A DNA stretch of 64,000 nucleotides from Escherichia phage phiLLS: the sequence record NC_047822.1; one strand, written 5' to 3'. Below the pieces are notes generated by a model. It was given only the letters and a program-made list of their open reading frames with translations. It had not been told where the DNA came from and searched no databases. Position 1 is the stretch's first letter, and the number at the start of each line of letters is the position of its first letter. The position numbers were made by a program, and so were the translations under genes. Shown here in pieces: positions 7,254 to 40,138 of the stretch.

Positions 7254-7355
7254 AATTCTGTGTAGAGTTAAGTAAACCGGTAGCCAACCAGCTATCATTG
7301 CTGACATCGAATTCAGCCACAGATACCATTTTCATTAATAACTGAGGAAATAAGC

Positions 7356-7541: not shown

Positions 7542-7550
7542 ATGAATTAT

Positions 7551-7627: not shown

Positions 7628-7652
7628 AATTAATTTAGTATGAGAATATACT

Positions 7653-8000: not shown

Positions 8001-8007
8001 TAAAATT

Positions 8008-8243
8008 TCAGTGCAGAACACGGAGCTAGCAATTCGGAAGTGCTGACTCATGATAAGCTGCCTATGTACTTGCGAAGCGGTCGTGTCCAAGACTCGGACT
8101 CTTGCACTGAAAACAATCAAACATTCTAGCGTGGTTGATGGGGAAACCAGCTTGGCTAGGGCAGAAGCTCGTTCGATTCGAGTGAAAGAATGGTTCTCGT
8201 AAGTCCGCACAAGTGATAACAGGTTCGAGTCCTGTCTAGAATG
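8008..8243 (+). ncRNA. structured RNA / tRNA-like region (unresolved)
   Basis: Long-range inverted repeat TCAGTGCAG/TTGCACTGA (8010/8102) and two T-loop-like motifs (TTCGATT near 8176, ACAGG-TTCGAGT-CCTGT at 8219-8235) with no standard cloverleaf. Confidence 0.3.
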
Positions 8244-8262
8244 ACATATTCTGGAGATTCTA

Positions 8263-8429
8263 TGGATTATGAAGAGTTAGATAAATTAGCTGATACATTA
8301 TCAGAACTATCTGATAATGTAGTAATAAAAGATTCTAGGATAGACAGTTTTATTGCTGATTATCGTAATGGTATTATCTCTAGGCAAGAACTAGTAGATA
8401 AAACTTATCAATATTTAAAGGGAAAGTAA
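8263..8429 (+). CDS. hypothetical acidic protein
   Basis: ORF track starts at 8241 inside the tRNA-like element; the internal ATG at 8263 is more plausible. Confidence 0.35.
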
Positions 8430-8447
8430 ACGAAAGTTTACTTATTA

Positions 8448-8547
8448 TGTAGGTTCCGATAGATCGGCGGGTCTATTCTGGCATTTAAGAGAAGTCTCGC
8501 AAACTTCTTTGTCAGCCGTGGGGTTGGTAGCCTCCAGGTGGCCTACA
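8448..8547 (+). ncRNA. tRNA-like / structured RNA candidate (about 100 nt)
   Basis: Perfect 7-bp closing stem TGTAGGT/GCCTACA; internal 6-bp stem AGAAGT/ACTTCT with 7-nt loop CTCGCAA; no canonical T-loop. Confidence 0.3.
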
Positions 8548-8574
8548 CAATAAGTAAATTTATTAAAAATTCAT

Positions 8575-8620
8575 TTGCTATTCTGCTTTATTATCTGTAT
8601 AATATATTTTATAAAGTGAA
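8575..8620 (+). promoter_or_regulatory. T5-type early promoter
   Basis: TTGCTA 8575-8580, TATAAT 8598-8603, spacer 17. Confidence 0.55.
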
Positions 8621-8635
8621 GAGAAGGAAAGCAAA

Positions 8636-8794
8636 ATGAAACACAAGATAGCTCAAGTTTTTATGGCATTATGGTGTATGCCAATAGCTATAACAGCATT
8701 TAATCTAGATACTTTTACTATAGAAGAAAAATGTATCGGATTAGTTAGCGGTTTTAGTATGCTGGGCTTATCTTTGCTGTGGTTAAAGAAATAA
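8636..8794 (+). CDS. small membrane protein (52 aa)
   Basis: Not in ORF track (under 60 aa); RBS GAGAAGGAAAG; two hydrophobic segments. Confidence 0.4.
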   Translation: MKHKIAQVFMALWCMPIAITAFNLDTFTIEEKCIGLVSGFSMLGLSLLWLKK

Positions 8795-8798
8795 TATT

Positions 8799-8876
8799 CT
8801 CCGTGTAGCTCAGTTTGGCCAGAGCGTTTCGTTTGGGGCGATAGGGTCGGGGGTTCAAATCCTCCCACGGAGACCA
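8799..8876 (+). tRNA. tRNA-Pro (anticodon TGG)
   Basis: Acceptor CTCCGTG/CACGGAG, D-stem GCTC/GAGC, anticodon loop TTTGGGG, T-arm GGGGG-TTCAAAT-CCTCC. Confidence 0.55.
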
Positions 8877-8882
8877 AACAAT

Positions 8883-8960
8883 TGCGGGTTAGATCTCTGG
8901 TAGAGATCGCTAGTCTCATAAGCTAGAAAGAGGTAGGTTCGATTCCTGCACCCGCTTCCA
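8883..8960 (+). tRNA. tRNA with anticodon CAT (second copy)
   Basis: Anticodon stem CTAGT/GCTAG with loop CTCATAA; T-arm GTAGG-TTCGATT-CCTGC. Confidence 0.5.
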
Positions 8961-8980
8961 TTTTAATAGAGGATTTCGAA

Positions 8981-9148
8981 ATGAAAGTATTTCGATTAGT
9001 AGTAAGTGACAAACGTTTAGGTAATAATACCTCAAGATCCTTACTTGCACATTATGGAAAAGATGAAAAAGAAGTAATGGCGGAGTTTGGGATTAATCAT
9101 TCTTACTTAAAAGTCCATTCTATTAAAGAAGTATACAATGGTTACTAA
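8981..9148 (+). CDS. hypothetical protein (55 aa)
   Basis: Small ORF between tRNAs. Confidence 0.35.
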   Translation: MKVFRLVVSDKRLGNNTSRSLLAHYGKDEKEVMAEFGINHSYLKVHSIKEVYNGY

Positions 9149-9149
9149 T

Positions 9150-9228
9150 AGATCGCTAGCTCAATAGGTTTAGTAGCATCCGACTTTTAATCGGAAGGTT
9201 CTGGGTTCGAGTCCCAGGCGATCTACCA
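9150..9228 (+). tRNA. tRNA-Lys (anticodon TTT)
   Basis: Acceptor AGATCGC/GCGATCT, anticodon stem TCCGA/TCGGA with loop CTTTTAA, T-arm CTGGG-TTCGAGT-CCCAG. Confidence 0.55.
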
Positions 9229-9246
9229 ATTTCAAGAAAAACGCAG

Positions 9247-9296
9247 TTGCTTGATGCTTAATTTCTTGTTATAATATTTATATAAATTGATGCGAA
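9247..9296 (+). promoter_or_regulatory. T5-type early promoter with no ORF downstream
   Basis: TTGCTT 9247-9252, TATAAT 9270-9275, spacer 17; followed by about 300 nt non-coding before tRNA-Ala. Confidence 0.55.
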
Positions 9297-9608
9297 AATA
9301 GCTGCCTAGATACCAGGTGTATGACGTCTACACTAGCAGAGCTACCGAAAAAGAGATCCTCAGGATAAACGTCGTAGCAAAATTAGTCTGGTATCCATCA
9401 ATTTAGTTCACTAAGGTATTAGCTCGACCTAGGACTGGCTGCCAAAAAGCACGATCCCTACGATTCGGGAGAAGTTCTAGATTAGTCCACTAGATTCAGC
9501 GGCAACTGAATAGTGTATTGGGTTTGCGAGATGACGCAGTTCCTTCCGCTCGAAGCGAAGGTGCTGTAGTTACGCCGAGCTAATAGCCTTAGTAAACTAA
9601 AGAATTTG
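9297..9608 (+). ncRNA. candidate promoter-driven non-coding RNA or tRNA-operon leader (about 310 nt)
   Basis: No ORF with RBS and no canonical tRNA fold; lies between a strong promoter and tRNA-Ala. Confidence 0.3.
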
Positions 9609-9684
9609 GGGGAATGGGTCTGCATGGAGTGGACACCTCGCTTGCACCGAGGACATCAGAACGGTTCGATTCCGTTATTCTCCA
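9609..9684 (+). tRNA. tRNA-Ala (anticodon TGC)
   Basis: Acceptor GGGGAAT/ATTCTCC, anticodon stem CCTCG/CGAGG with loop CTTGCAC, T-arm AACGG-TTCGATT-CCGTT; CCA not encoded. Confidence 0.55.
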
Positions 9685-9692
9685 CAAAATAC

Positions 9693-9770
9693 GCGTGATT
9701 GATGGAATTGGCATACATACCGTCCTTAGAAGTCGGGTTTTGAGGGTTCGAATCCCTTGTCACGCACCAA
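9693..9770 (+). tRNA. tRNA with anticodon TAG (Leu codon reader) in a short-variable-arm scaffold
   Basis: Acceptor GCGTGAT/GTCACGC, T-arm GAGGG-TTCGAAT-CCCTT, anticodon loop CTTAGAA (4/5-bp stem). Confidence 0.45.
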
Positions 9771-9845
9771 ATTTGATGGTCAGAGTAAATTAAACCTACT
9801 ATCTCGGTTGAGCTGTTTTAATGGGTTCGAATCCCAGCGGGGCGT
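9771..9845 (+). ncRNA. tRNA-like element (canonical T-arm, no acceptor pairing found)
   Basis: TGGG-TTCGAAT-CCCA at 9822-9836 but no complementary 5' acceptor strand; possible pseudo-tRNA. Confidence 0.25.
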
Positions 9846-9881
9846 AACTGCCTGGTGTGATAGAGGCATCATCTTATTATT

Positions 9882-9972
9882 GGAAGAGCAAATCGAATTG
9901 GCGACGAAAACCGCTTGGAAAGTGGCTGACTGGTAAAACGGCTTGAGAGTTCAAATCTCTCCTCTTCCGCCA
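9882..9972 (+). tRNA. tRNA-Ser (anticodon GGA), long variable arm
   Basis: Acceptor GGAAGAG/CTCTTCC, T-arm GAGAG-TTCAAAT-CTCTC, anticodon loop TTGGAAA, 91 nt. Confidence 0.55.
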
Positions 9973-9984
9973 AACAATTTATAT

Positions 9985-10079
9985 GGTAGGTCAATCCAAC
10001 GGCTGGCGCTGGACTCCGACTTGAAATCGGTTGATCGTAGTGATACGGTGTAAGGGTTCGATCCCCTTACCTACCTCCA
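9985..10079 (+). tRNA. tRNA-Ser (anticodon TGA), long variable arm
   Basis: Acceptor GGTAGGT/ACCTACC, T-arm AAGGG-TTCGATC-CCCTT, anticodon loop CTTGAAA, 95 nt. Confidence 0.5.
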
Positions 10080-10084
10080 AATCT

Positions 10085-10215
10085 TGGAATATGCCGGAAT
10101 TGGTAGACGGGACTGCCGAATAGGTTTACTAGGAACATCCACTCCTAGAAATATACCTTAAAAGCGGTTGAGTTAAATGGTCTAACTCATGAAGGTTCAA
10201 ATCCTTCTATTCCTT
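10085..10215 (+). ncRNA. atypical tRNA-like region (about 130 nt)
   Basis: D-loop-like AATTGGTAGACG, good T-arm GAAGG-TTCAAAT-CCTTC at 10192-10208, but body too long; perfect 7-bp hairpin TGAGTTA/TAACTCA. Confidence 0.3.
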
Positions 10216-10444
10216 GATACATCAATGGCTCAAAGTGTAACGGTGCTATTTGATGCACTTGGAAAGACTTTCCCGACATGCGTTCGGGGGTAAGCTTCTG
10301 AGGCTAGAATAGAAGAGTTTCTGGGAGCCGCCACAATCGAAAATTCGTACTCGTCTTGAGCTGCGTGCAATAGGAGATAACTTGATTAGTATTCTAGAAC
10401 ATGCTAATTGAGGATGGTTTCGCTAACCCTGCGAGTTTTCAATT

Positions 10445-10521
10445 GTGGCTATATCATAATTGGTTAATGATCCTGATTGTGAATCAGGCCTATGTGGATT
10501 CGAATTCCACTAGCCACCCCA
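10445..10521 (+). tRNA. tRNA-His (anticodon GTG)
   Basis: Acceptor GTGGCTA/TAGCCAC, D-stem TCAT/ATGA, anticodon stem CCTGA/TCAGG with loop TTGTGAA, T-arm GTGGA-TTCGAAT-TCCAC. Confidence 0.6.
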
Positions 10522-10546
10522 AATTAATTTAAATAGGAAATAAAAT

Positions 10547-10741
10547 ATGGCTGATTTCTGCAAACAATGCTCCATTGATATGTGGGGCAGAGATACTGGT
10601 GACTTAGCTGGTCTGATTACAGAAGCCGAAGTCAAAGAAGGTTATGGTGCAGTTGTGGTTTGCGAAGGATGCGGAGTCATTCGAGTAGACCATAAAGGTA
10701 AGCGCCTTGAAGAACCTGAGCCAGTTACTCTATTTCCATAG
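10547..10741 (+). CDS. hypothetical protein with zinc-ribbon-like Cys pairs (64 aa)
   Basis: CKQC...CEGC motifs; RBS AGGAAATAAAAT. Confidence 0.45.
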   Translation: MADFCKQCSIDMWGRDTGDLAGLITEAEVKEGYGAVVVCEGCGVIRVDHKGKRLEEPEPVTLFP

Positions 10742-10754
10742 AGTAAAGAATTAT

Positions 10755-10830
10755 TGGGATGTAGATCAATTGGCAGATCGTCGGCCTCTGACTCCGAAGG
10801 TTCCACGTTCGATCCGTGGCATCCCAGCCA
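10755..10830 (+). tRNA. tRNA-Gln (anticodon CTG)
   Basis: Acceptor TGGGATG/CATCCCA, T-arm CCACG-TTCGATC-CGTGG, anticodon loop CTCTGAC. Confidence 0.55.
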
Positions 10831-10836
10831 AATTAT

Positions 10837-10912
10837 TGGAGAGTAGTGTAACGGTTAGCACAACGGCCTTTGACTCCGTTAATGGTAGGTTCGATTCCTC
10901 CTTCTCCAGCCA
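10837..10912 (+). tRNA. tRNA-Gln (anticodon TTG)
   Basis: Acceptor TGGAGAG/TTCTCCA, anticodon loop CTTTGAC, T-loop TTCGATT. Confidence 0.5.
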
Positions 10913-10929
10913 ACTTAAAAGGTAAAAAT

Positions 10930-11490
10930 GTGAAGGTAATACCGGAATTTCCATTATATAGTATATCTGAGGATGGTAAAGTTTGGTCAACTTATTCTAA
11001 TAAGTTTTTATCCTCTTATATTAACAATGATGGGTATCCCTGTTATAAATTACATAAGAAGGGGGTTCAGTATACTCAACTAATACATAGATTATTAGCT
11101 AGAGTATACAAAGATCTGCCTTCTCTGGATTCTGACCTAGAGGTAGATCACAAAGATACTAATATTCTTAACTATGCACTAGAGAATATACAAGTTCTCA
11201 GTAAAGAGGATCACAGAAAGAAAACCTTACTAGATAATGGGTATACTGCGTATAACAAGGTATGTCCAACTTGCTCAGGATACAAAGATCCCGGAGCTAT
11301 TCAGTGTAAGGGATGTTCTTCGCTATCCCAAGTAAAGAATAAAGATGTTACTGCTGAGCAAATAGAATACTGGGTGTCCAAGTATTCATGGGTTAGAGCA
11401 GCCAAAGAATTTGGATACTCAGATAATGGACTTCGTAAAAGGTATAAATCCCTTACTGGTAAAGATCCAAAAACAATAAAACGCGGTTAG
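10930..11490 (+). CDS. HNH homing endonuclease
   Basis: HNH motif DHKDTN...N...EDH; probable GTG start after tRNA-Gln (no in-frame ATG); sits among tRNAs as T5 HNH nickases do. Confidence 0.55.
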   Translation: MKVIPEFPLYSISEDGKVWSTYSNKFLSSYINNDGYPCYKLHKKGVQYTQLIHRLLARVYKDLPSLDSDLEVDHKDTNILNYALENIQVLSKEDHRKKTLLDNGYTAYNKVCPTCSGYKDPGAIQCKGCSSLSQVKNKDVTAEQIEYWVSKYSWVRAAKEFGYSDNGLRKRYKSLTGKDPKTIKRG

Positions 11491-11554
11491 CCTCATGGTG
11501 GGGACTCAGCCTTCCAAGCTGATGGAGAGGGTTCGATTCCCTCTAGCCGCTCCA
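11483..11554 (+). tRNA. tRNA-Gly (anticodon TCC)
   Basis: Acceptor GCGGTTA/TAGCCGC, anticodon stem TCAGC/GCTGA with loop CTTCCAA, T-arm GAGGG-TTCGATT-CCCTC; overlaps HNH stop. Confidence 0.55.
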
Positions 11555-11570
11555 ACTTTAAGGAAACACT

Positions 11571-11822
11571 ATGCACGTTTTTGAGTTTCGTAATAAAAGT
11601 ACTGATAAGCGAGTTATCATTATTGGAGAAACATATCGAGCATATGAACAAACTGACGGCTCTGTTATCTTGAATGATGAGAAAGGAGGTTTTAGCTTTT
11701 ATCCAGAAGAACCTTATGAAGAGTTTCGAAAACAATTTAACCTAGACTGGAGAAAGCATTTAAACACTGTTGCTCCATCTGTAGTATTGCCAACTACCAG
11801 TACTGTACCCTCTAATGGCTGA
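11571..11822 (+). CDS. hypothetical protein (83 aa)
   Basis: RBS AAGGAAACACT before ATG. Confidence 0.45.
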   Translation: MHVFEFRNKSTDKRVIIIGETYRAYEQTDGSVILNDEKGGFSFYPEEPYEEFRKQFNLDWRKHLNTVAPSVVLPTTSTVPSNG

Positions 11823-11979
11823 CAACCTAAAAGTAAAGATTGATAAACAAAAGAAACGTGTAGAAGTAGAGATTGGCGAAGAACGTGTTGCCTTTACTTT
11901 CGAGTTTCTTCAGCAGTTGGCAATGACAGTAATGTCAGATAAATCCCCTGTATTTGAAAAAGAAATCCCGTTGAAATAA
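11815..11979 (+). CDS. hypothetical protein (54 aa)
   Basis: Not in ORF track; ATG overlaps upstream TGA (ATGGCTGA); hairpin follows. Confidence 0.35.
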   Translation: MADNLKVKIDKQKKRVEVEIGEERVAFTFEFLQQLAMTVMSDKSPVFEKEIPLK

Positions 11980-30614: not shown

Positions 30615-30656
30615 TTCTAGAAGACATTTTTTGAAAACACATTTCCAGAAATTACT

Positions 30657-31256
30657 GTCGGATTTGCACACTGATATTCTAGAAATTTATGGTAGGATTT
30701 GCACAAATGCCTAAGTTTTTAGGAACTCTTACTCTCCTGAAAATAGCAGCATTATTTCGGGCCGAAGGCCCATGATTGCCTGAGTTTTTAGAGCCACAGA
30801 AATTTTCACTTGTCAAGCTATTTTGCCCCATTTTGCTAATAAAATTTCGCTTTTTCTGCACCTATCTCAAATTAACCCAAGTTATCTCACATCTCCTCCA
30901 AAATCCCCGCGGATCAGGTGCTCCGCACCAAACATGCGCTACATCCTTCTAGCCCCCAAATTTCTCTCACTCTCTCATCTTCTCCTCAAACCCACACAAT
31001 CACACACCCTCCAATCGAAGTCACAAAAATCTTGTCGGATTCGCACATCTTAATCCTAGAAAAACCGTGTCGGATTTGCACATACTCCACAGGATTGATG
31101 CGCAGCATCGGATTGCTGGAGTTTTTGGAAAAATTCATTGTCGGATTTGCACACTATAAAAATTTTTCGGGTCGGATTTGCACACTACCAAAAATTGTCG
31201 GATTTGCACATACGTGCCCGCACGTAACACCCGTGGAGCAATGTCGGATTTGCACA
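30657..31256. repeat. iteron array: 8 copies of 14-bp GTCGGATTTGCACA (two with 1 mismatch)
   Basis: Copies at 30657, 30692, 31034, 31069, 31140, 31171, 31197, 31243; non-coding. Confidence 0.8.
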
Positions 31257-31259
31257 AAA

Positions 31260-31281
31260 GCGCAGGGCAATTGCCCTGCGC
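31260..31281. repeat. perfect 22-bp palindrome GCGCAGGGCAATTGCCCTGCGC
   Basis: Read directly; sits between the two repeat families. Confidence 0.8.
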
Positions 31282-31284
31282 TAA

Positions 31285-31500
31285 ATACGAATGATAATAA
31301 GAATCATTCTCATTTAAAAAGCGGAATGAGAATGATAATAATTCGCATTTAGAAAGTGAAATGAGAATCAATCTCATTTAAGAAAGGGAATGAGAACTAT
31401 TCAAAAAGTGAAATGATTCTCATTTAGGAAAGGAAATGATTATCGGTTAGATAGTGGAATGCGAATGATAATGATTTGCATTTAAGAATGGAAGTGAGAA
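31285..31500. repeat. array of about 9 AATGAGAAT-type motifs, several as inverted pairs
   Basis: GGAATGAGAATGATAAT, GAAATGAGAATCAATCTCATTT, GGAATGAGAAC, GAAATGATTCTCATTT and others. Confidence 0.7.
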
Positions 31501-31520
31501 ACACTGTTATTTAAGTTATC

Positions 31521-31623
31521 CACAGACTTATCAACAGCACGATTTGACTTGACAGAATCCTAGCCATTTTGAAGCGTTATTAACAGACTTATCCACAGCT
31601 TATCCTACTGTATAAATATACAG
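31521..31623. repeat. left inverted repeat with DnaA-box-like TTATCCACA motifs
   Basis: ACAGACTTATCCACAGCTTATCCTACTGTATAAATATACAG (31583-31623) matches the RC of 34631-34671 with 1 mismatch; outer arms match imperfectly. Confidence 0.75.
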
Positions 31624-31744
31624 TATTCCTACGTAGTGAATAATTCTAATATACCGCTAAAACGTCCTGAATCGCATTCTAACGCGTTTAATTTTGGTGG
31701 GGATACTAAAACAAGGGGGTATTTAACTGGAGGCATGGAAAAAC

Positions 31745-31775
31745 GGGGAGCTAATCCCCGTCGTTCTCAGAGTAG
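31745..31775 (-). terminator. Rho-independent terminator ending the minus-strand 7-gene operon
   Basis: On minus strand ACGGGGATTAGCTCCCCGT hairpin followed by TTTTT. Confidence 0.55.
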
Positions 31776-31876
31776 CGGGCAACCGTTACGCTTTGCCCAC
31801 TCCCGCCACTCATCTTGATGTCTAGATTTGCGACGGCGTACTAAAAACCGCTTATACCAGTGATTAAACCATCGTT

Positions 31877-32080
31877 TCATAAACCATCCTCCGGTAATTG
31901 ATGCGTGATCTTTTCCTCTTCCCCATAGGAATCGACCAAATGCTGATAATAACCATCGTGATCATAAATCACTTTATCATACTCGCCACGCTCGACCGCT
32001 TGCCGGTTTTCTGGCGTATCGGGCACGTAAAAAACGTCAACCATTGTACTGATTTTGGTTACAACAATTTTATTGCTCAT
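31877..32080 (-). CDS. hypothetical acidic protein (67 aa), last gene of the island operon
   Basis: RBS GGGGG; codirectional with six upstream genes. Confidence 0.45.
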   Translation of the reverse strand: MSNKIVVTKISTMVDVFYVPDTPENRQAVERGEYDKVIYDHDGYYQHLVDSYGEEEKITHQLPEDGL

Positions 32081-32098
32081 AATAACCCCCGTTATTAA

Positions 32099-32257
32099 TT
32101 ATTTGCGTAAATATACGCTTGCCAATAGTCCAGCTAGAAAGCCCGCCGATACACCAAATGAAGCCACACCGGGAACACTAGCACCATGAGCATATAAAGC
32201 CCAGCAAATTACATAAGGCAACAACGGAAACATGCCAGCTATTAAAAACTTTTTCAT
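32099..32257 (-). CDS. small membrane protein (52 aa)
   Basis: Not in ORF track; MKKFLIAGMFPLLPYVICWALYAHG...; ATGA overlap with upstream stop. Confidence 0.4.
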   Translation of the reverse strand: MKKFLIAGMFPLLPYVICWALYAHGASVPGVASFGVSAGFLAGLLASVYLRK

Positions 32258-32598
32258 TGCGCCACCTTTCGAAACGCTGTTTCAATACTATCCGCAGTGG
32301 ATTGAATATACGCGCCTTTCATTACTAGGCGCTCGGTGCATATCTTGCGGAAAATATTAATAAAATCATCTTCATTTTCTGCAATTAACGCTTCACCCAT
32401 AACCTGAACGTCACAAGATGCAAAGGTCAAAAATTGAAACGCTAGTTCACGGGCAACGACCGCATTAATCTTATAATGCGCTTTGCCCTCATAAATATTA
32501 ATAACGCCCTTATAAGCTGGTGAAAGCTGGTTTAAATAGTTTGCTAACAATGCCGGGCGGCAATTAGCAACAAAGCGGTTGCCTTCATAAATAACCAT
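32254..32598 (-). CDS. hypothetical protein (114 aa)
   Basis: Start set at MVIYEG (TAAaATG junction with upstream gene); ORF track extends to 32637. Confidence 0.45.
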   Translation of the reverse strand: MVIYEGNRFVANCRPALLANYLNQLSPAYKGVINIYEGKAHYKINAVVARELAFQFLTFASCDVQVMGEALIAENEDDFINIFRKICTERLVMKGAYIQSTADSIETAFRKVAQ

Positions 32599-32599
32599 T

Positions 32600-32812
32600 T
32601 TATAACACCCCACGAAACGCAGCGTAAAAGGTGGCAAAGTGTTTAACCGTTTCAGCGATCACGTTGCCGCGCTTGTCAAATTTCTTTTCTGTAACACGAA
32701 AGGCATTCTTATTACGTGCTACATATTCGATTTTACAATCTTCACGCTCGAACGTGTTAACATCCACCAGCTTAAAGCCTTTCGAACGAGCAAGAGAAAC
32801 GTTGCGGATCAT
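32600..32812 (-). CDS. hypothetical basic protein (70 aa)
   Basis: RBS AAGGAGAATAAAA. Confidence 0.45.
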   Translation of the reverse strand: MIRNVSLARSKGFKLVDVNTFEREDCKIEYVARNKNAFRVTEKKFDKRGNVIAETVKHFATFYAAFRGVL

Positions 32813-32814
32813 TT

Positions 32815-32970
32815 TTATTCTCCTTTACTAGTCATGCAGCCCAGCAGATAAGAAAAAACGGCGATACCCGCGCCGACAATAACGGCGTGAACGTCGAAAG
32901 CTATAGCAAAAAGTGATAAAATAGCACCCAAGATACCTGCTAGAATTGACCGAAAAATAACCATTTTCAT
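32815..32970 (-). CDS. small membrane protein (51 aa)
   Basis: Not in ORF track; MKMVIFRSILAGILGAILSLFAIAF...; RBS AGGGGAATG. Confidence 0.4.
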   Translation of the reverse strand: MKMVIFRSILAGILGAILSLFAIAFDVHAVIVGAGIAVFSYLLGCMTSKGE

Positions 32971-33010
32971 TCCCCTAGTTAATGGGGCGAAAGTAACGCC
33001 CCGTTATTAA

Positions 33011-33241
33011 TTACATTAAAACAATTTTTGCAGCTTGTTTTTTAGTACAGTGTTCCGCTTTCAGGGTATCCAGCAAAAAGCCCGCTGTTTGCTGATCAAT
33101 CTTATCAGCGTTGTATAGTTCTTGGATGGTGTTATAGGTTTTAGCAATGCCGAACTCCTGCACCATTTCATGAATAACAACACGATTAGATACCCAACCT
33201 TGCGCGGTGAACAGATGACTAGCAGAAGAATAAGCAACCAT
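33011..33241 (-). CDS. hypothetical protein (76 aa)
   Basis: Start set at MVAYSS after RBS GGAGG; ORF track extends to 33298. Confidence 0.45.
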   Translation of the reverse strand: MVAYSSASHLFTAQGWVSNRVVIHEMVQEFGIAKTYNTIQELYNADKIDQQTAGFLLDTLKAEHCTKKQAAKIVLM

Positions 33242-33358
33242 TTTAAACCTCCAAATTTTTGGGAAAATTTTCAATCCACCGTTTTGGTGTAAAAGCATTA
33301 TAACAAAAAAGGCCGCCTATTATGGCGACCTTTACAAAACTTTACACTAAATTAATTA

Positions 33359-34363
33359 TTACTCGCTTTCGGTGCTAGTGGTAAAAGTAGAAATATCAAT
33401 ACCTTTCACCATTTCATCGATCATTTCAGCGATGTTAAAACTTTGCACCATTTCTAACATTGCCGCTTCCATAGCGGCCCCTGCTACCGCTTTCGCTTTC
33501 TGGTTGCTTGGGGCATACTGGTCAACCGCTACGCTCAGCAGGTTGGCAATTACTACTCGACCGATAGGCGTATCAATATAACCTTTAATCATGAACGGTG
33601 CTTTTTTAGCCGCTACTTTCGTAATTTGAGTAAGTGCAATTTTACCCGCTTCCAGTTTTGCAGCGTTTACAACAGCGGATTTATTAGCGGCAACAATGTT
33701 AGCAATCTTGGTCATAGTATTTTTTCCTTTGTTTTCAGTGATTTGAGTATTAACGCTTTGAGTGTTAGAATTTACAACATGGTTTTCTGTATTGTCAACT
33801 GGTTTTAGCGTAAATCCAGCATTTGCAACATTTGATTCATTCCCATATTCTAAATAATCGCTAGGGATCAACATGTTGCCACTAGCGCGTTCAAAACATA
33901 ACACGCCAGTTGTAGAAATTACATCACTATCAGCACTTTTGTAATTAGCTGATAGTTCACGCCAAATGCTAGTTAATAACGATCCGACACTATCAGTCCT
34001 GATATTACTTACTTTTGTTGCTGTTACTTGCTCTTTTTCTTGCACGTTATATAATCGCGCAATGTAGCCACTATTAGATTCACTATAACCAACAATGATA
34101 AAATCAATATCACTCCCACGTTGATTGCGGAAAATGTGATAATCACGGTTGAAAATTACTAGCGCCCTTTTCTGGTCTAGTAATTGTGTGAAATCTTCAA
34201 CTGAATAATGAGTATCATTACTGTCTAAAATTTCATCATGAATCTTTTCAACCATGCTAGCGGTATGTTGTACACTTGCCGCGCTACTACCATCTAGCAG
34301 GTTGCGCAAACTACCCTTTACAATAGTTGCGTTTGCTGGTACTGCAATTCTAGTAAAAGACAT
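33359..34363 (-). CDS. hypothetical protein (334 aa), first gene of the island operon
   Basis: Strong RBS GAGGGAGA; Ala/Lys-rich C-terminal half; no recognisable catalytic motif. Confidence 0.55.
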   Translation of the reverse strand: MSFTRIAVPANATIVKGSLRNLLDGSSAASVQHTASMVEKIHDEILDSNDTHYSVEDFTQLLDQKRALVIFNRDYHIFRNQRGSDIDFIIVGYSESNSGYIARLYNVQEKEQVTATKVSNIRTDSVGSLLTSIWRELSANYKSADSDVISTTGVLCFERASGNMLIPSDYLEYGNESNVANAGFTLKPVDNTENHVVNSNTQSVNTQITENKGKNTMTKIANIVAANKSAVVNAAKLEAGKIALTQITKVAAKKAPFMIKGYIDTPIGRVVIANLLSVAVDQYAPSNQKAKAVAGAAMEAAMLEMVQSFNIAEMIDEMVKGIDISTFTTSTESE

Positions 34364-34630
34364 TTTCTTGTCTCCCTCGTTAATCGGTGAGTAAATGATA
34401 AAGGTATTTTCTTTCTAGGGGCAAATATTATTTTACCTTTTTATTTTCCTTGCCTAGCGCCTAGTTTTATGCTAACCGCGCAGCGGTACAGTAAAGAGCA
34501 AAACACGGTGAAGCCGCTAGGGCGGCGCATTGAGGCTTTACTTTAATATTACCCCCACTGCATTTAGCTCGTTAGAAAGCGATTTAGGCCGCTTAAAATT
34601 GATTGCAGTTGTTAACACTACCTTTCTACC

Positions 34631-34740
34631 CTGTATATTTATACAGTAGGATAATCTGTGGATAAGTCTGTGTAAAAGTCCTTATATCGCCGCCTATCGT
34701 GTCAAATCATTTTGTGCTGTGGATAACGTTGGGGATAACT
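34631..34740. repeat. right inverted repeat (partner of 31521-31623) with DnaA-box-like motifs
   Basis: CTGTATATTTATACAGTAGGATAATCTGTGGATAAGTCTGT and downstream TGTGGATAAC. Confidence 0.75.
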
Positions 34741-34776
34741 TAAATGATAGTGGTTCTCACTCAGGCCGATAGTTTC

Positions 34777-34831
34777 TTATAGTTATTATTTCTATCGGTT
34801 ACGATTTCTTATAGTTATTATTTCTCATTAA
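34777..34831. repeat. tandem direct repeat TTTCTTATAGTTATTATTTCT x2
   Basis: Two 21-bp copies separated by ATCGGTTACGA. Confidence 0.75.
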
Positions 34832-35017
34832 TTTATAAGTATATTATATATTATGGAATAGTTAGTTGGCTAATGAGATTTTCCGTGATTAATAGTCTGC
34901 TAATAGTTTAAGCCGTTACAATCCACCAGCATGATTATCGTTCTAGCAATTATTAGTCTGCTATCTTTCCGATGCATACTAACAAATAAAAGTCAATTAA
35001 TTTATTTCATAAAATAA

Positions 35018-35062
35018 GTAGTTATCCACTGGAAAATAAAAGTCAAGTGGATAACTAGGAAA
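35018..35062. promoter_or_regulatory. inverted pair of DnaA-box-like sites (TTATCCACT / AGTGGATAA)
   Basis: AGTTATCCACTGG and AAGTGGATAACTA about 30 bp apart; more GATAA motifs to 35190. Confidence 0.5.
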
Positions 35063-35501
35063 ATTTCATTTTTGCTTCTGGGGATAAGTTATCAACAAGG
35101 CTAGAATGCGCCTAAAACGCCCTACAACGCAGTAAAGTTTTTAGCCATCCCATCATAAGGGGATAAGCCGTTTATCGCTGCCACGAGCTTTTTAGATTTT
35201 GTCAAGTAGGGCAAGGCAAATATAAATGAAAAAATTACTTGCTTATCTGCTGGGTTTTATGGTATTCGCGCGCCCGTTTCTTTTAATTTTAGGCCGTCGC
35301 CGGACGCGGTGCGAGTATTTGCCTTCTTTACATTTCTTTACAAAAATAAGGTTGCGCCTTTTTCGTTGTTTGTTATTATTTATCTCGTAGGGCGGCAATG
35401 ACGAACTACACGGCGGGAAGTTTACCGCCGCGCTCTTTAAAAATTGGGTATATCTTAAAGTCTATCGGCGGTAAACTTATCAATTATAAGGAATCGACGA
35501 T

Positions 35502-35705
35502 ATGAAACAAACTTTACTAATCACTGGTAAACCTAGCAAGGCACTGGACAGCAAAACAAAAAATTTGTTGACAGTAGCGCAAAGATCGGTAAAATATCGA
35601 TTTAAGCAGTACAAGAAAGGCCGCCAGCAAGGTCTGGAAATGATCTGGCGAAATATTATGATTGACCTGAAAGAAAATCATAAAAAACTGCAAAAAATAG
35701 TTTGA
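35502..35705 (+). CDS. hypothetical basic protein (67 aa)
   Basis: RBS AAGGAATCGACGAT. Confidence 0.4.
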   Translation: MKQTLLITGKPSKALDSKTKNLLTVAQRSVKYRFKQYKKGRQQGLEMIWRNIMIDLKENHKKLQKIV

Positions 35706-35933
35706 CTTCCTAGCCGATAGGCTTTAAGATGTACCCAGTTCGATGAGAGTGATAACTTGATACAATTTGACGGCCGGTACTTGCCATAATGTGCCCCGCC
35801 CCCTAACTGGGATATAGCGGCCTGAGTGGAGTTCTTTAATTTGATTATAATGGCGAGTGGATTTTTTCTTATTATCTGCTACTTTCTAGCAGATAATGCG
35901 GAACAATCCACTGAATAAACTGGAGTTTATACC

Positions 35934-36185
35934 ATGAAAAACGTTATTACCGCGCCGAAAGTTGGTCAATCCGTTTTTATTCCTTTCGTTACTAAAACGG
36001 ACGAATTAACCGGAAAAGCCGAACGTATTAAAGGTGCGGCGCTTATGCCGTTCGATACAATCGACGCGGTATACGCTGAAAATGAACGCAGCAACAACGG
36101 AAAGCCCGTTTTTAGCGTTCGCGTTAAATCCGGCGACGTTGTAAAGGTTGTTCAACGCAACGAAAAATGGGAAGCTGTGTTGTAA
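35934..36185 (+). CDS. hypothetical protein (83 aa)
   Basis: RBS CTGGAGTTTATACC. Confidence 0.5.
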   Translation: MKNVITAPKVGQSVFIPFVTKTDELTGKAERIKGAALMPFDTIDAVYAENERSNNGKPVFSVRVKSGDVVKVVQRNEKWEAVL

Positions 36186-36283
36186 TTTAGTGTTAACTTT
36201 ATATTCCCCTGAAATATGGGGAATATAACGATTAACATTATGTTAATCTTATCCCTTAAATTAAATCAACAGGAGTTACAATC

Positions 36284-36691
36284 ATGACTAACGTTAAAAC
36301 CGCAAAATTCGCATGGAATGAAGAAAACACTCAGAAAGCTGTTTCCATGTACCAGCAGTTAATCAATGAAAACGGTTTAGATTTCGCAAATAGCGACGGC
36401 CTGAAAGAGATTGCAAAAGCAGTAGGCGCGGCTTCTCCCGTATCCGTTCGCTCAAAATTGACCAGCGCGAAAGCGTATCAGAAAAGCGATAAGCCGCGCA
36501 AAGTTGGCGGCGGCAGTTCAATCCGCAAAGCTCACTATGTACGCGTTATTGCAAAACATGCCATTGATTCCGGCATTATCAAAGACGCTGACGATCTGGC
36601 ATCACTGGAAAGCGCAAAACTGGAAACGCTGGACGCAGTAGCACAACTGTTAGGCGTTGCCGATGAAGTAAAACAAGCCGCAGGCGAATAA
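36284..36691 (+). CDS. pre-early-region protein, possibly A2-like (135 aa)
   Basis: RBS CAGGAGTTACAATC; position upstream of A1-like gene; assignment by synteny and size only. Confidence 0.4.
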   Translation: MTNVKTAKFAWNEENTQKAVSMYQQLINENGLDFANSDGLKEIAKAVGAASPVSVRSKLTSAKAYQKSDKPRKVGGGSSIRKAHYVRVIAKHAIDSGIIKDADDLASLESAKLETLDAVAQLLGVADEVKQAAGE

Positions 36692-36749
36692 ATTTAATTA
36701 GTGGGGAATACTCCCCACTATAATTTCCCTTAAATCAGGAGTTATTAAA

Positions 36750-36947
36750 ATGATCTTTTACCCTACTGAATCGTTAATTCTAGGCTTGTTTATTATGGCG
36801 GCCTCATTACTATTCGCTTATTTTCAAAATGATCTGGATTCGTATTATTTTAAGCGCAAAGCTAATCTAGCAAAGCGTTTGGGCTTATTTTGCTTTATTG
36901 CCGCCGTTGTTTGTGGTGTTAGTTCTAGCCTGATGCCGATTAGTTAA
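36750..36947 (+). CDS. small membrane protein (65 aa)
   Basis: RBS CAGGAGTTATTAAA; two TM helices. Confidence 0.4.
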   Translation: MIFYPTESLILGLFIMAASLLFAYFQNDLDSYYFKRKANLAKRLGLFCFIAAVVCGVSSSLMPIS

Positions 36948-37043
36948 ATGTTGCAAATTATAACGCCTATTATTCAAGGCGTTATATCTGGCAATATTGC
37001 CAATAACAAACGTTTTTAATCCCTTTAATGGAGTTTTATTATC

Positions 37044-38714
37044 ATGGTTATTTCCGCAGAAAAACAAACCCAGATCCTCAATCTTGCCGCTGATTTCAAT
37101 TTCTATGGTAAACGTCTGCGCGCTACTAAACTGGAAGTTTGTGACGATATATCAAAAGCGGTTTACGATACTGCAAAACATTCCACCGCGATTTGTGACT
37201 GGTTGGAAGCAAATAAACCAGCGAAACCAAAAGCGGCGAAAGTAGCAAAAGCCATTAAAAACGATGACCGCCCTGAAGCCGCCGGAGTTATTTCTAGCAC
37301 GGTGGAGCAATGGGAAGTAAAGCAGGGCAACCGCTTCATTATCACATCAATCCAGAACAACACGTTCCCGCATAAAAACTTTTTAGCCTCGCTCGAGCAA
37401 TATGCCCAGTTTATTGGCGCTGATTTGCTTGTTAGCAAGTTTATTTATAACAAAAACGGTTTTCAAAATGGGGAAGGCGCGGACGGAATAAAATACGATT
37501 CCGCGTTTGACAAATATATCTGCAATAAGAACGTATTTTTAAACAATCGCCGTTTTGCTTTCATGGCTGAGATTAATGTTTTGCCCACCGCAGATTATCC
37601 GCTATCTGGATTCGCTGAAACTGCAACGGCTTTAAATATTGAGGGTCTGGCAATTGGGGCGGCTAAAATCACCGCCGAAAGCGTGCCAGCTTTAAAAGGT
37701 GAAGTAGTGCGCCGCATGTATTCAACGGGAACGGCAACGCTAAAAAACTATATTCAGCAAAAAGCAGGGCAAAAAGCGGAGGCGCTACATAACTTTGGGG
37801 CGCTGATTGTTGAGTTCGACGAAGACGGTGAATTTTTTGTTCGCCAGCTTGAAACGATGGATGAAAGCGGCGTTTTTTACGATTTGAATATTTGCGCTAC
37901 TCCCGCCGGATGCTATGAAACATCGGGGCATGTTTTAGGCTTGCAATATGGTGACGTCCACGCTGAAAAACTAGATGAAGAGTGCGCCGCAGCGTCATGG
38001 GGACACGGTGACACCTACGGGCTTGTGGATATTCTCAAGCCAAAATATCAATTCGTCCATGACGTGCATGATTTTACATCACGCAACCATCACAACCGCG
38101 CCTCTGGTGTATTCCTAGCAAAACAATACGCCGCCGGACGTGATAAGGTTCTGGATGATCTTATCGATACGGGGCGCGTACTGGAAGCAATGGAGCGCGA
38201 TTTCTCGCAAACAATCATTGTTGAATCTAACCATGATCTGGCGTTATCTCGTTGGCTTGATGATCGTAATGCTAACATTAAAGACGACCCAGCAAACGCG
38301 GAACTATATCACCGCCTTAATGCTGCAATTTACGGAGCTATTGCAGAAAAAGACGACACTTTCAACGTGCTAGATTATGCGCTGCGCAAGGTTGCAGGCT
38401 GCGAGTTTAACGCTATTTTCCTAACGACTGACCAATCATTTAAAATTGCAGGCATCGAGTGCGGCGTACACGGTCACAATGGCATAAACGGCAGTCGTGG
38501 CAATCCGAAACAGTTCAAGAAATTGGGCAAATTAAACACGGGGCACACTCATACCGCCAGCATTTACGGCGGCGTATATACCGCTGGCGTGTCTGGTAGT
38601 CTGGACATGGGCTATAATGTTGGCGCGTCAAGCTGGACGCAAACGCATGTTATTACCTATGCAAACGGTCAGCGCACTTTGATTGACTTTAAAAACGGTA
38701 AATTTTTCGCGTAA
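37044..38714 (+). CDS. A1-like pre-early protein (calcineurin-like metallophosphoesterase motifs)
   Basis: 556 aa as T5 A1; GDVHAEK, GVHGHNG, GHTHT motifs; RBS AATGGAGTT. Confidence 0.6.
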   Translation: MVISAEKQTQILNLAADFNFYGKRLRATKLEVCDDISKAVYDTAKHSTAICDWLEANKPAKPKAAKVAKAIKNDDRPEAAGVISSTVEQWEVKQGNRFIITSIQNNTFPHKNFLASLEQYAQFIGADLLVSKFIYNKNGFQNGEGADGIKYDSAFDKYICNKNVFLNNRRFAFMAEINVLPTADYPLSGFAETATALNIEGLAIGAAKITAESVPALKGEVVRRMYSTGTATLKNYIQQKAGQKAEALHNFGALIVEFDEDGEFFVRQLETMDESGVFYDLNICATPAGCYETSGHVLGLQYGDVHAEKLDEECAAASWGHGDTYGLVDILKPKYQFVHDVHDFTSRNHHNRASGVFLAKQYAAGRDKVLDDLIDTGRVLEAMERDFSQTIIVESNHDLALSRWLDDRNANIKDDPANAELYHRLNAAIYGAIAEKDDTFNVLDYALRKVAGCEFNAIFLTTDQSFKIAGIECGVHGHNGINGSRGNPKQFKKLGKLNTGHTHTASIYGGVYTAGVSGSLDMGYNVGASSWTQTHVITYANGQRTLIDFKNGKFFA

Positions 38715-38787
38715 ATAAATCAGGTTGGCGGCTTGAAATATGGCCGCCATTATAAAAGTTTATTAAATTAATTGGAGTTTTATAAAT

Positions 38788-39180
38788 ATGAAAAAGCAAA
38801 ATATCCCATTCGATCGCGCTCAGTCTTCTATTGTTCTAGTTTATTCTAGTGGTGAGCGCTATCACGTCGAGGCGGGGCACGTTGTTGATGATTTAATCGA
38901 GTTTAACGAGGCGCTACAGATCACTACTTTCGCCTATACCACGGGCAAACTATCAAGCCGCATCAAGGCGAAAGGCGTTTATATTGACACGATGAAGCAG
39001 GAAACGATTATCATTGACGCGGTGAAGTCCGGTCTAGCCTTTGCAGTTGTCGCGCCTTGTCCCGCTTGTCTTGATGATCAGTTAATGAGCGCGAAGGTAT
39101 TCACATGCGCGGGCATTCGTTCCAGCGTATCAGGTGAGGATATTAGTTTTATCGCTGATGCGCTTGCGTTTGGCCTTTAA
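38788..39180 (+). CDS. hypothetical protein (130 aa)
   Basis: RBS TTGGAGTTTTATAA. Confidence 0.5.
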   Translation: MKKQNIPFDRAQSSIVLVYSSGERYHVEAGHVVDDLIEFNEALQITTFAYTTGKLSSRIKAKGVYIDTMKQETIIIDAVKSGLAFAVVAPCPACLDDQLMSAKVFTCAGIRSSVSGEDISFIADALAFGL

Positions 39181-39254
39181 TAGCTGGACTAGTCCAGCCC
39201 ATCCAGCGGGCTGGATTAATTTAATTTAATCCCTTAAACGGAGAACGTAACAAA

Positions 39255-39974
39255 ATGAAGATTACCCGTAATTTCCCGCATGTTTCCCGCGTCATGATTT
39301 GGGATCTGGATGGCACTATCGTTAACTCATTCCATCGCGTAGCGCCTTGCTTTGATAGTGAGGGCAATCTAGATCTAAATAAGTATAAAAATGAAGCGTG
39401 TAAACATGCTTTGATAATGCAAGATACACTGTTACCGCTTGTTACCTATATGCGCCAGTGCATGAATGACGCCAACACGTTAAACATTATTTGTACCGCT
39501 CGACTAATGAGCAAATCAGATTACTATTACCTACGGAAGCAAGGGCTGCGAGGGCGTGGGGGTAGCAATATCCGCGTATTTTCCCGCGATACACTGCACA
39601 AATATTTTGAAGCTGATAAGGTTAGCGAAATATACCACAGCAAAGACGCTATATATAAAAGCCACTATTTTGAGTTATTTAAGCAATTATATCCGAACGC
39701 TGATTTCACGATGATTGATGATCATAAAGGCGTGCTATCAGCGGCGGCATCATACGGATTTAAAACGCTGGACGCGCAAGCCGTTAACGATATTCTATCG
39801 ATTGGGGTTACATTGATAGGTGAAACCTTTATCGATGAATCTCTTGAGGATGATAATGATTATCAGTTCCTGGCCGACCGCCTGCAATTATGTTGGGAAG
39901 GTATGACCGAAGAAGAACGCGCAGAATATAGTTGCAGCCCGCAACAATATATTGAGAAATTAAAAGTTGCGTAA
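39255..39974 (+). CDS. HAD-family 5'-deoxyribonucleotidase (dmp-like)
   Basis: N-terminal WDLDGTIV HAD motif; 239 aa; RBS AACGGAGAACG. Confidence 0.6.
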   Translation: MKITRNFPHVSRVMIWDLDGTIVNSFHRVAPCFDSEGNLDLNKYKNEACKHALIMQDTLLPLVTYMRQCMNDANTLNIICTARLMSKSDYYYLRKQGLRGRGGSNIRVFSRDTLHKYFEADKVSEIYHSKDAIYKSHYFELFKQLYPNADFTMIDDHKGVLSAAASYGFKTLDAQAVNDILSIGVTLIGETFIDESLEDDNDYQFLADRLQLCWEGMTEEERAEYSCSPQQYIEKLKVA

Positions 39975-39989
39975 TAATTAAAGTTGAAA

Positions 39990-40040
39990 TTGTTTCACCT
40001 TGCAATTAAAATGGTTGCAGGGTGAAACAGTTAGCATGGT
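39990..40040 (+). terminator. large hairpin after dmp-like gene
   Basis: TGTTTCACC ... GGTGAAACA 9-bp stem with internal TTGCAA/TTGCAG. Confidence 0.4.
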
Positions 40041-40138
40041 AATAGTAACGGGGGTGGCGGTTAGCAGACTAAGTATTTTCGCCGGAGGCAGTGAGCACAT
40101 CCTCATGTGTAATCTTATGAAATTTCGAGATTTCCAAA

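Follow-up and report, generated by a model that had tools for sequence, protein, structure and literature searches.

The inverted-repeat-bounded pre-early gene block of the T5-like Escherichia phage phiLLS and its counterpart in T5

The closest described counterpart of the locus examined here is the IRC-spacer-IRD / IRD'-spacer-IRC' pair of phage T5, which is reportedly also described in a 2015 account by Davison. According to Davison 2020 (bioRxiv 10.1101/866236), the pair goes back to Heusterspreute 1987 and Wang 2005, and the DnaA boxes it carries number eight, arranged in pairs 3 bp apart. Published work also has it that the two arms are conserved and that the ~3 kb between them is highly variable. 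The pre-early genes of BF23 were described as "two inversely oriented transcriptional units", pre-early transcripts and proteins have been detected in the related phage Bas33, and a 2026 preprint refers to the T5 promoter upstream of 011 as experimentally characterised. A T5 phage lacking the stretch from hegG to 017 remains viable, i.e. the block is dispensable in the laboratory. What is said below on expression timing, toxicity, nickase activity and dispensability is taken from the literature, and our own comparison covers the identity and synteny of the genes, the conservation of promoter, terminators and arms, the geometry of the boxes and the mosaicism of the cassette.

The window, a 64,000-nucleotide stretch from Escherichia phage phiLLS (NC_047822.1), is, judged by its sequence, that of a T5-like phage. 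T5 5-11968 is colinear with window positions 40093-29112 in the alignment, which places the terminal repeat at ~30790-40097. [quoted passage not shown] Mapped onto T5, the block falls within the terminal repeat, that is, within the first-step-transfer DNA, with the A2-side repeat region on one side and the injection stop region on the other. A1 and A2 lie to its right and a homologue of T5.018 to its left, its strand is opposite to that of A1/A2, and its gene order is that of T5. The first proposal is thus borne out by the T5 comparison and the literature, and the block is very probably the phiLLS version of the second T5 pre-early unit (T5.011-T5.017), of opposite orientation and situated in the terminal repeat; none of our results speaks against this identification. 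By analogy with the T5 and Bas33 literature, it would be expressed before second-step transfer. The block and its flanking repeats are real, but they have already been described in T5-like phages; the earlier note's reading is supported, and the novelty that it implied is not.

The 41-bp core repeat on which that reading was built (31583-31623 and 34631-34671, 40/41 identical) was confirmed, and it turned out to be part of a longer inverted repeat of 146 nt, 109/146 matching, with arms at 31493-31638 and 34616-34761 separated by 2977 nt. A weaker extension continues inward in register (31660-31692, with its partner at 34562-34594; 26/33). The iss-side arm, 31493-31638, aligns with T5 9411-9541 and corresponds to IRD'-spacer-IRC' (Repeat Region 3), and the A2-side arm, 34616-34761, aligns with T5 6098-6228 and corresponds to IRC-spacer-IRD (Repeat Region 2). 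On this alignment evidence the inverted repeat is the published pair of T5: position, orientation and the four box pairs with their 3-bp gap are the same, the sequences are homologous, and the arms lie in the same way relative to the non-coding repeat array and the end of the terminal repeat. The two phages differ in the length of the ungapped repeat (146 nt in phiLLS, 131 in T5), in the number of boxes (eight in the phiLLS window, seven in T5 itself) and in the insertion of the homing-endonuclease gene hegG next to the A2-side arm, which is present in T5 and absent from the window. In general outline, the window has the T5-type inverted repeat of ~131 bp flanking a variable block of ~2-4 kb.

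The arms are non-coding and far better conserved than the genes in between. In the conservation profile they showed 91-95% identity in all 26 loci, and some parts of the cassette could be aligned in only 2-9 of these 26; the iss-side arm was 89-99% identical across 36 T5/EPS7-type loci, and conserved arms with a variable interior were seen in 39 of the 40 related loci examined. All four arms, two from the window and two from T5, align in register with a mean column identity of 80%. The fact that the distant environmental contigs encoding A1, in which neither the repeat nor the box pairs were found, are genome fragments whose organisation is not known makes that absence weak evidence.

The DnaA-box-like sequence that had been noticed in the repeat proved to be four same-strand pairs, each with a 3-nt gap, located in the arms. 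The iss-side arm carries TTATCCACA-gac-TTATCAACA at 31516-31536 in its outer (IRC') part and TTATTAACA-gac-TTATCCACA at 31577-31597 at the spacer/IRD' junction, both on the plus strand, and the A2-side arm carries TTTTACACA-gac-TTATCCACA at 34657-34677 and TTATCCCCA-acg-TTATCCACA at 34718-34738, both on the minus strand. The window therefore has the eight DnaA or DnaA-like boxes in four 3-bp-spaced pairs that mark the T5 type. Over 100 shuffles of the 64-kb window, the mean number of such pairs per 64 kb was 0 at <=1 mismatch and 0.43 at <=2 mismatches, and five of the nine consensus TTWTNCACA boxes of the whole window lie within the two arms. The pairs keep their relative positions almost throughout the related loci, those of My1 and the Sugarland-type phages among them. 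Like the clusters of E. coli oriC and the DnaA-titrating or regulatory clusters, the phiLLS set combines the consensus TTATCCACA with one-mismatch boxes at close, regular spacing. It differs from the oriC clusters in having no known AT-rich unwinding element or replication function, and in that the candidate boxes form head-to-tail pairs, 12 bp apart, in an inverted repeat spaced by 3 kb. We infer that the arms may be bound by DnaA, or by a phage protein (A2, for example), and may help to stop or restart DNA entry; our literature search brought up no experimental work on the stop signal or on binding of DnaA.

DnaA boxes are known as operators at several E. coli promoters, and it could be argued that the arms are operators as well, at which DnaA or A1/A2 binds the boxes to shut off or time the divergent pre-early units rather than to stop entry. 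The A2-side arm would be well placed for this, lying between two divergent pre-early units and ~190 bp upstream of the operon promoter, and the hexamer TTGACA is invariant in the spacers of all four arms of the window and T5. However, the promoters annotated in T5 are outside the arms, and the iss-side arm is situated past the terminator of the operon, at a place where there would be nothing for an operator to act on. The same hexamer had raised the question of a promoter within the arms, which we rejected as the main reading, since the conserved TTGACA has no acceptable -10 at 16-18 nt and the promoter scan inside the arms gave only 9/12 matches. Taken together, we consider it unlikely that the arms serve as operators.

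The seven minus-strand ORFs of the earlier note (g334, g76, g51, g70, g114, g52 and g67, named by their length in residues) are all present at the sizes given there, and six of the seven proteins are 61-100% identical to T5.011-T5.015 and T5.017, with gene order and strand conserved. Besides these six proteins, the phiLLS block shares with the T5.011-T5.017 unit its gene order, strand, promoter, and internal and terminal terminators; it differs in that an unrelated membrane protein of 52 aa takes the place of T5.016, in that the N-terminal half of T5.011 is represented by a different, EPS7-type variant, and in that we count an eighth ORF of 37 aa, overlooked by the earlier note, which is not in the T5 gene list. 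The earlier note had made its reading depend on whether all seven ORFs have syntenic T5 homologues of known function: syntenic homologues exist for six, and a known biochemical function for one only. Translational coupling had been assumed for the whole set; tight coupling holds for g51/g70/g114/g52 alone (gaps of 2, 1 and -4 nt) and not for g334 and g76, the gap after g334 being 117 nt and containing a terminator hairpin, and that between g76 and g51 being 40 nt.

The operon promoter found by the promoter scan is a sigma-70 promoter on the minus strand at 34395-34424 (TTGCCC, 18 nt, TATCAT), preceded by an A/T-rich upstream element. T5 has the homologous promoter annotated at 6411-6489, and the T5 segment around it, 6229-6497, shares 91% identity with the window, both hexamers included. 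An internal rho-independent terminator on the same strand follows g334 at 33308-33333 and corresponds to the T5 terminator 7534-7559. The operon's own terminator, also claimed before, is a rho-independent hairpin at its end (31739-31762, minus strand; T5 9275-9296) with a G+C-rich stem of 8 bp, a U-tract after it and an RNA fold of -20.9 kcal/mol (z = -2.0). Window and T5 type therefore agree in the promoter upstream of 011 and in having one terminator behind 011 and another behind the last gene. A foreign origin by composition was considered and rejected. The higher GC that had been suspected for the block is seen against the early genes to its left (0.35-0.44 versus 0.32-0.39), but the block does not exceed the pre-early genes to its right (0.39-0.48), so that GC is no sign of foreign origin.

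All seven proteins belong to existing PHROG families, and the PADLOC and NCBIfam scans of all seven gave nothing meaningful. The first gene, g334 (33359-34363, minus strand, as are all the genes that follow), encodes a homologue of T5.011, 61% identical, with the Pfam match PF24450 (DUF7566, E = 2.8e-135; phrog_4263). It consists of a hypervariable N-terminal half, alignable at the DNA level in only 2/26 loci, and a conserved helical C-terminal half; the N-terminal half is the EPS7-type variant, 85-88% identical to EPS7 and related Salmonella-phage proteins. Its AlphaFold model (pLDDT 80-93 in the N-terminal domain) had no PDB match better than E = 0.23 and in BFVD matched only uncharacterised phage proteins. 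Many UniRef relatives are named DNA N-6-adenine methyltransferase, a candidate function that we rejected, as Pfam gives only DUF7566 and there is no PDB fold match; this unsupported name is spreading among the T5.011 relatives in the databases. T5.011 itself is toxic to E. coli and disturbs the nucleoid. Next come g76 (33011-33241), 83% identical to T5.012 (phrog_5145), and g51 (32815-32970), 63% identical to T5.013, a small protein with two transmembrane segments and a GRAVY of 1.51. T5.013 is toxic, and its expression lyses E. coli.

The following two genes bear on a conflict between databases over which gene encodes the Ung-dependent nickase. T5.015 is toxic to E. coli and was reported to be an Ung-dependent AP-site nickase (Mahata et al. 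2021, PMC8201957), and g114 (32254-32598), 92% identical to T5.015 and carrying the UniRef name "DNA-(apurinic or apyrimidinic site) endonuclease", is on the basis of these database names the probable homologue of that enzyme. The main text of Mahata et al. 2021 (PMC8201957) gives neither the size nor the sequence of the purified protein, and g114 found no match among PDB sequences. RefSeq and PHROGs attach the name Ung-dependent endonuclease to g70 (32600-32812), which is 100% identical to T5.014; as T5.014 is "ORF015" in the numbering of AY587007, this label probably stems from a numbering clash.

Toward the end of the operon, g52 (32099-32257) encodes a small hydrophobic membrane protein (phrog_35622, GRAVY 1.11) without a T5 match. 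It occupies the slot of the unrelated T5.016, is found in ~1/3 of the related loci, and is mutually exclusive with T5.016 across them. The acidic product of g67 (31877-32080; phrog_6973) is 87% identical to T5.017, and its My1 counterpart, My1_016, is 51% identical. The 37-aa ORF (31767-31880) overlaps the g67 stop as ATGA, is preceded by a GGAGGA Shine-Dalgarno sequence, encodes a very basic product (pI 11.6) and stops 5 nt short of the terminal terminator hairpin. It is intact in T5 and four other loci, with 5/9/22 substitutions at codon positions 1/2/3, and it is annotated as hypothetical in slur09, EASG3, oldekolle and NBEco002, while the T5 reference records leave it without annotation.

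Comparison of the relatives shows what is fixed in this arrangement and what is not. In each of the 39 informative loci the unit occupies the same genomic position, and the gene layout is the same in the 36 T5/EPS7-type loci, all of one orientation; the opposite orientation occurs only in other genera or subfamilies, namely Sugarland/IME260, My1 and a fourth lineage, where the block is reversed with the gene order along the transcript preserved. It is therefore antisense to A1 in the T5/EPS7-type phages and co-directional with it in the other three, which implies at least one inversion between the arms. The two arms lie between 1.85 and about 4.1 kb apart and the gene content is mosaic, with breakpoints also inside the block, e.g. 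in the middle of g334, and not only at the arms. The mosaic content, the variable length and the reversed lineages could all be taken to mean that the arms delimit an accessory cassette, mobile or invertible, which moves or flips as a block, in line with the "self-contained cassette" of the earlier note. In that mobile sense the term is not supported, and we regard such a cassette as highly improbable: we found no gene for a transposase, integrase or invertase within the block or next to it (Pfam, PHROGs, PADLOC and NCBIfam gave no such domain for the seven listed proteins), on inspection of the sequence the arms have no matching flanking direct repeats, GC is undistinctive, breakpoints fall within the block, and neither varied sites nor both orientations in one lineage were seen. 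In the G segment of Mu (Gin) and the C segment of P1 (Cin), a block of phage genes bounded by inverted repeats likewise occurs in both orientations, which for the phiLLS-type block holds only across lineages; the phiLLS-type block has no invertase, and its repeats are much longer and carry DnaA boxes. The fact that one orientation is fixed per lineage points to a rare evolutionary inversion and not to a switch.

The same mosaicism admits of another interpretation, in which the arms are kept mainly as homology "handles" by which co-infecting T5-like phages swap takeover genes, with any role in DNA entry being secondary. The highly conserved flanks of a mosaic interior would be expected of such handles, g52 and T5.016 alternate in one slot, and g334 has an EPS7-type N-terminal half, yet g70 is 100% T5-type. 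Nevertheless, the block itself contains conserved coding segments (g70/g114 and the C-terminal half of g334) that would make equally good handles, and handles need neither inverted symmetry nor precisely spaced pairs of DnaA boxes, so that we think this, too, improbable as the main reason for keeping the arms.

Right after partial entry of the DNA, the host sigma-70 RNA polymerase is expected to initiate at the strong promoter that precedes g334 and to read leftwards across the eight small genes, ending at the terminator just inside the iss-side arm. The products are very probably accessory host-takeover effectors, an option already raised by the earlier note that fits the published toxicity and dispensability data: the T5.015 homologue would nick host DNA at Ung-made abasic sites, the T5.011 homologue would disturb the nucleoid, and the T5.013 homologue would damage the membrane. 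The iss-side arm, which adjoins the non-coding repeat array, is the leading candidate for the injection stop signal. The viable hegG-to-017 deletion of T5 should remove the A2-side arm, and if so the pair as such is not essential. A tentative extension, which we hold to be possible though rather doubtful, is that the block is evolutionarily invertible and exchangeable and has flipped at least once, with the arms acting regardless of its content and orientation. As the arms kept their DnaA-box pairs through the inversion, they would work independently of the interior and of the direction in which it lies; this independence, together with the viable deletion, would confine any stop function to the iss-side arm alone, and the A2-side arm would be kept for some other reason, such as recombination or regulation. 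The inversion between the arms is a modest addition to the known picture, and the text of Davison 2020 may already allude to the opposite direction of transcription, in which case it is not new.

The window is one more example of a catalogued architecture, and its value is confirmatory. The pause of T5 DNA entry after 8% of the genome has been a question for more than 50 years, and among sequence features it is chiefly these repeats that are candidates for the stop signal. That the repeat and its eight boxes are conserved while the genes of the interior are reshuffled supports the view that the strongest constraint is on the arms and not on the genes.

The repeat-bracketed operon of phiLLS is a feature already described in the T5 literature, including its DnaA boxes and the variability of the genes it encloses. 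[quoted passage not shown] Matches to the 3.5-kb stretch come from 454 phage records, almost all of them T5-like Salmonella and Escherichia phages, and where the records annotate it, the match is to the 'left terminal repeat'. T5 5-11968 is colinear, in reverse, with window 40093-29112, which places the terminal repeat at roughly 30790-40097, with the whole repeat-cassette-repeat unit inside it; A2 (36284-36691, +) and A1 (37044-38714, +) lie to the right of the block. Named by their lengths in residues, g334, g76, g51, g70, g114 and g67 correspond to T5.011 (61% identity), T5.012 (83%), T5.013 (63%), T5.014 (100%), T5.015 (92%) and T5.017 (87%), respectively, with the T5 gene order preserved. 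The hydrophobic 52-aa protein g52 is without a T5 counterpart and sits in the T5.016 slot; roughly one in three of the related loci has it, never together with T5.016. All seven proteins were assigned to existing PHROG families, g334 also being Pfam DUF7566.

The 41-nt core of the inverted repeat (31583-31623 and 34631-34671), in which 40 of 41 positions match the reverse complement as originally reported, is nested in a 146-nt inverted repeat with 109 matches, whose arms we call iss-side (31493-31638, after the injection stop signal) and A2-side (34616-34761). A weaker extension continues inward in register (31660-31692 and 34562-34594, 26/33). Each arm has two pairs of DnaA-type boxes, all on the same strand within the arm and spaced exactly 3 nt within the pair, starting at 31516 and 31577 (+) on the iss side and at 34657 and 34718 (-) on the A2 side. 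When the window was shuffled 100 times, such 3-nt-gap pairs occurred at a mean of 0 with one mismatch and 0.43 with two. The 64-kb window has nine consensus TTWTNCACA boxes, and the two arms, ~290 nt together, account for five of them.

T5 has the same repeat pair, IRC/IRC' (6098-6136 / 9503-9541) and IRD/IRD' (6188-6228 / 9411-9451), and the four arms of the window and T5 align in register with a mean column identity of 80%. Resting on Heusterspreute 1987, Wang 2005 and Davison's 2015 review, Davison 2020 (bioRxiv 10.1101/866236) described IRC-spacer-IRD (131 bp) as Repeat Region 2 and IRD'-spacer-IRC' as Repeat Region 3, the candidate injection stop signal, listed eight DnaA or DnaA-like boxes, 'always in pairs separated by 3 bp', and set the conserved arms against the highly variable ~3 kb between them, whose length ranges between 1851 bp (DT57C) and 4258 bp (BSP22A). 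The BF23 genome paper speaks of 'two inversely oriented transcriptional units'. As an independent check of the published statements, we used 40 IMG/VR loci anchored on A2; both arms were found in the same geometry in 39, the remaining locus being cut short, with arm-to-arm distances of 1.85 to ~4.1 kb and the four box pairs keeping their relative positions in almost every locus with arms. A conservation profile of 26 distinct loci gave 91-95% identity in all 26 for the arms and likewise for g70 and g114, while the g52 slot, the stretch of the 37-aa ORF p37 and the terminator, and especially the N-terminal half of g334, could be aligned in only 2-9.

Both flanks of the unit hold further repeats. 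On the A2 side, 34762-35230 contains a 21-nt sequence repeated perfectly in direct orientation (34773-34793 / 34805-34825), and a further four DnaA-like boxes occur at 35022-35097, outside the 3-nt-gap pair geometry. Beyond the iss-side arm, 30650-31500 is filled with dense non-coding arrays, of GTCGGATTTGCACA copies at 30656-31263 and of AATGAGAATGAT-type units at 31284-31497, which are probably the counterparts of DRD and DRE, published repeats in Repeat Region 3 of T5. In 100-nt bins, identity along this stretch is 76-94% in all, or almost all, of the 26 loci.

The seven minus-strand ORFs between the arms have the sizes first given for them. Translational coupling applies to g51, g70, g114 and g52, which abut or overlap, but not to the others, e.g. 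g334, downstream of which there are a terminator hairpin and a gap of 117 nt. The GC content of the block (0.35-0.44) is higher than that of the early genes on the left, as had been proposed, but not than that of the other pre-early genes on the right. Both terminators that T5 has in this unit, one behind 011 and the other behind the last gene, have counterparts in the window, at 33308-33333 (-) and 31739-31762 (-). The window shares 91% identity with T5 6229-6497, the stretch that spans the annotated promoter upstream of T5.011, and the promoter itself (~34395-34424, -) is conserved as TTGCCC, 18 nt and TATCAT, with an A/T-rich upstream element kept between the two phages. Directly past the T-tract of the internal terminator, 56 nt upstream of g76, there is an extended -10 motif, TGTTATAAT (33297-33305, -), which, as read from sequence, may serve the small genes as a second promoter. 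An eighth ORF, absent from the earlier note, is p37 (31767-31880, -), encoding a very basic product (pI 11.6). Its start overlaps the g67 stop codon behind a strong Shine-Dalgarno, GGAGGA, it ends 5 nt short of the terminal hairpin, and substitutions among its relatives are biased to the third codon position (5/9/22 at positions 1/2/3). The ORF is intact in T5, where the reference records leave it without annotation; the records of slur09, EASG3, oldekolle and NBEco002 do annotate it, as hypothetical.

T5.008, T5.011 and T5.015 are toxic to E. coli, and T5.015 binds Ung and nicks DNA at Ung-made abasic sites (Mahata et al. 2021, PMC8201957). According to a 2026 preprint, T5.011 disturbs nucleoid organisation, T5.013, with two transmembrane segments, causes lysis, and T5.015 causes elongation. 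RefSeq and PHROG (phrog_4227) place the label of Ung-dependent AP-site nickase on the 70-aa protein, T5.014 ('ORF015' in AY587007 numbering; window 32600-32812, -), and the UniRef name 'DNA-(apurinic or apyrimidinic site) endonuclease' is on the 114-aa protein, T5.015 (32254-32598, -). As the T5.0xx tags of Mahata et al. indicate the 114-aa protein, RefSeq/PHROG probably have the label misplaced by one gene, and it is spreading to other phage records.

In g334, the N-terminal half (33800-34300, -) is hypervariable, aligning at the DNA level in only 2 of the 26 loci, between a conserved C-terminal half and a conserved promoter. Its variant is of the EPS7 type (85-88% to EPS7-group proteins) among T5-type neighbouring genes, a pattern suggestive of a swapped specificity domain. 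With AlphaFold2, an N-terminal alpha/beta domain was predicted confidently (pLDDT 80-93) and the helical C-terminal part poorly; the model gave no fold match in the PDB (best E = 0.23) and matched only uncharacterised phage proteins in BFVD, mostly from T5-like phages. These model-based results agree with the preprint's statement that T5.011 'resists functional predictions'. Many relatives (P0013, P0015, P0088 and others) bear the UniRef name 'DNA N-6-adenine methyltransferase', which found support in neither Pfam nor the predicted fold.

Most likely, after first-step transfer, host RNA polymerase starts at the ~34395-34424 promoter, transcribes g334, terminates partially at 33308-33333 and then reads the small genes as far as the terminator at 31739-31762. 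Their products would add Ung-based DNA nicking, nucleoid disturbance and membrane damage to the host damage by A1, Dmp and Hdi, and the arms would act as cis elements separate from the genes. Conservation and box geometry point to the arms as putative protein-binding sites. Davison 2020 (bioRxiv 10.1101/866236) proposed binding by membrane-bound DnaA, which would hold the DNA in place and keep entry halted until A1/A2 act. Operator sites or recombination handles, two roles compatible with each other, both seem rather unlikely. In the preprint, a T5 mutant lacking the stretch from hegG to 017 is viable but forms smaller plaques, which makes genes 011-017 dispensable under laboratory conditions. 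Nominally spanning T5 5411-9157, this deletion should take the A2-side arm (6098-6228) with it; in that case having both arms would not be essential, and it would be left to the iss-side arm to provide any stop function.

The orientation of the block differs between lineages. The window's orientation is found in 36 of 36 T5/EPS7-type loci. In the Klebsiella phages IME260 (L041 3438-7223) and Sugarland (L040), the block lies between the conserved arms on the A1/A2 strand with its order along the transcript kept: a T5.011 homologue first (36% identity, E = 3e-54), followed by a gene that some T5-type phages also carry between 011 and 012, and next by a T5.015-like C-terminus. Pectobacterium phage My1 (L043 7801-11877; 157-nt arms at 7801-7957 and 11721-11877) has the flipped layout too, its 011-like and 017-like genes being reversed in order and strand, as does a fourth lineage (L082 1076-5801). 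That the block is a mobile cassette is very improbable, as Pfam, PHROGs, PADLOC and NCBIfam searches of the seven proteins found no recombinase and the locus is fixed. Near distant environmental A1 homologues (35-49% identity), neither a comparable repeat nor box pairs were found, and the 011 family was missing as well. The opposite orientations imply that the block was inverted between the arms at least once, which kept their DnaA boxes throughout; most simply, the inversion would have occurred in the ancestor of the T5/EPS7 group. The inverted orientation of the block across lineages may be a modest addition to the published description of this region.
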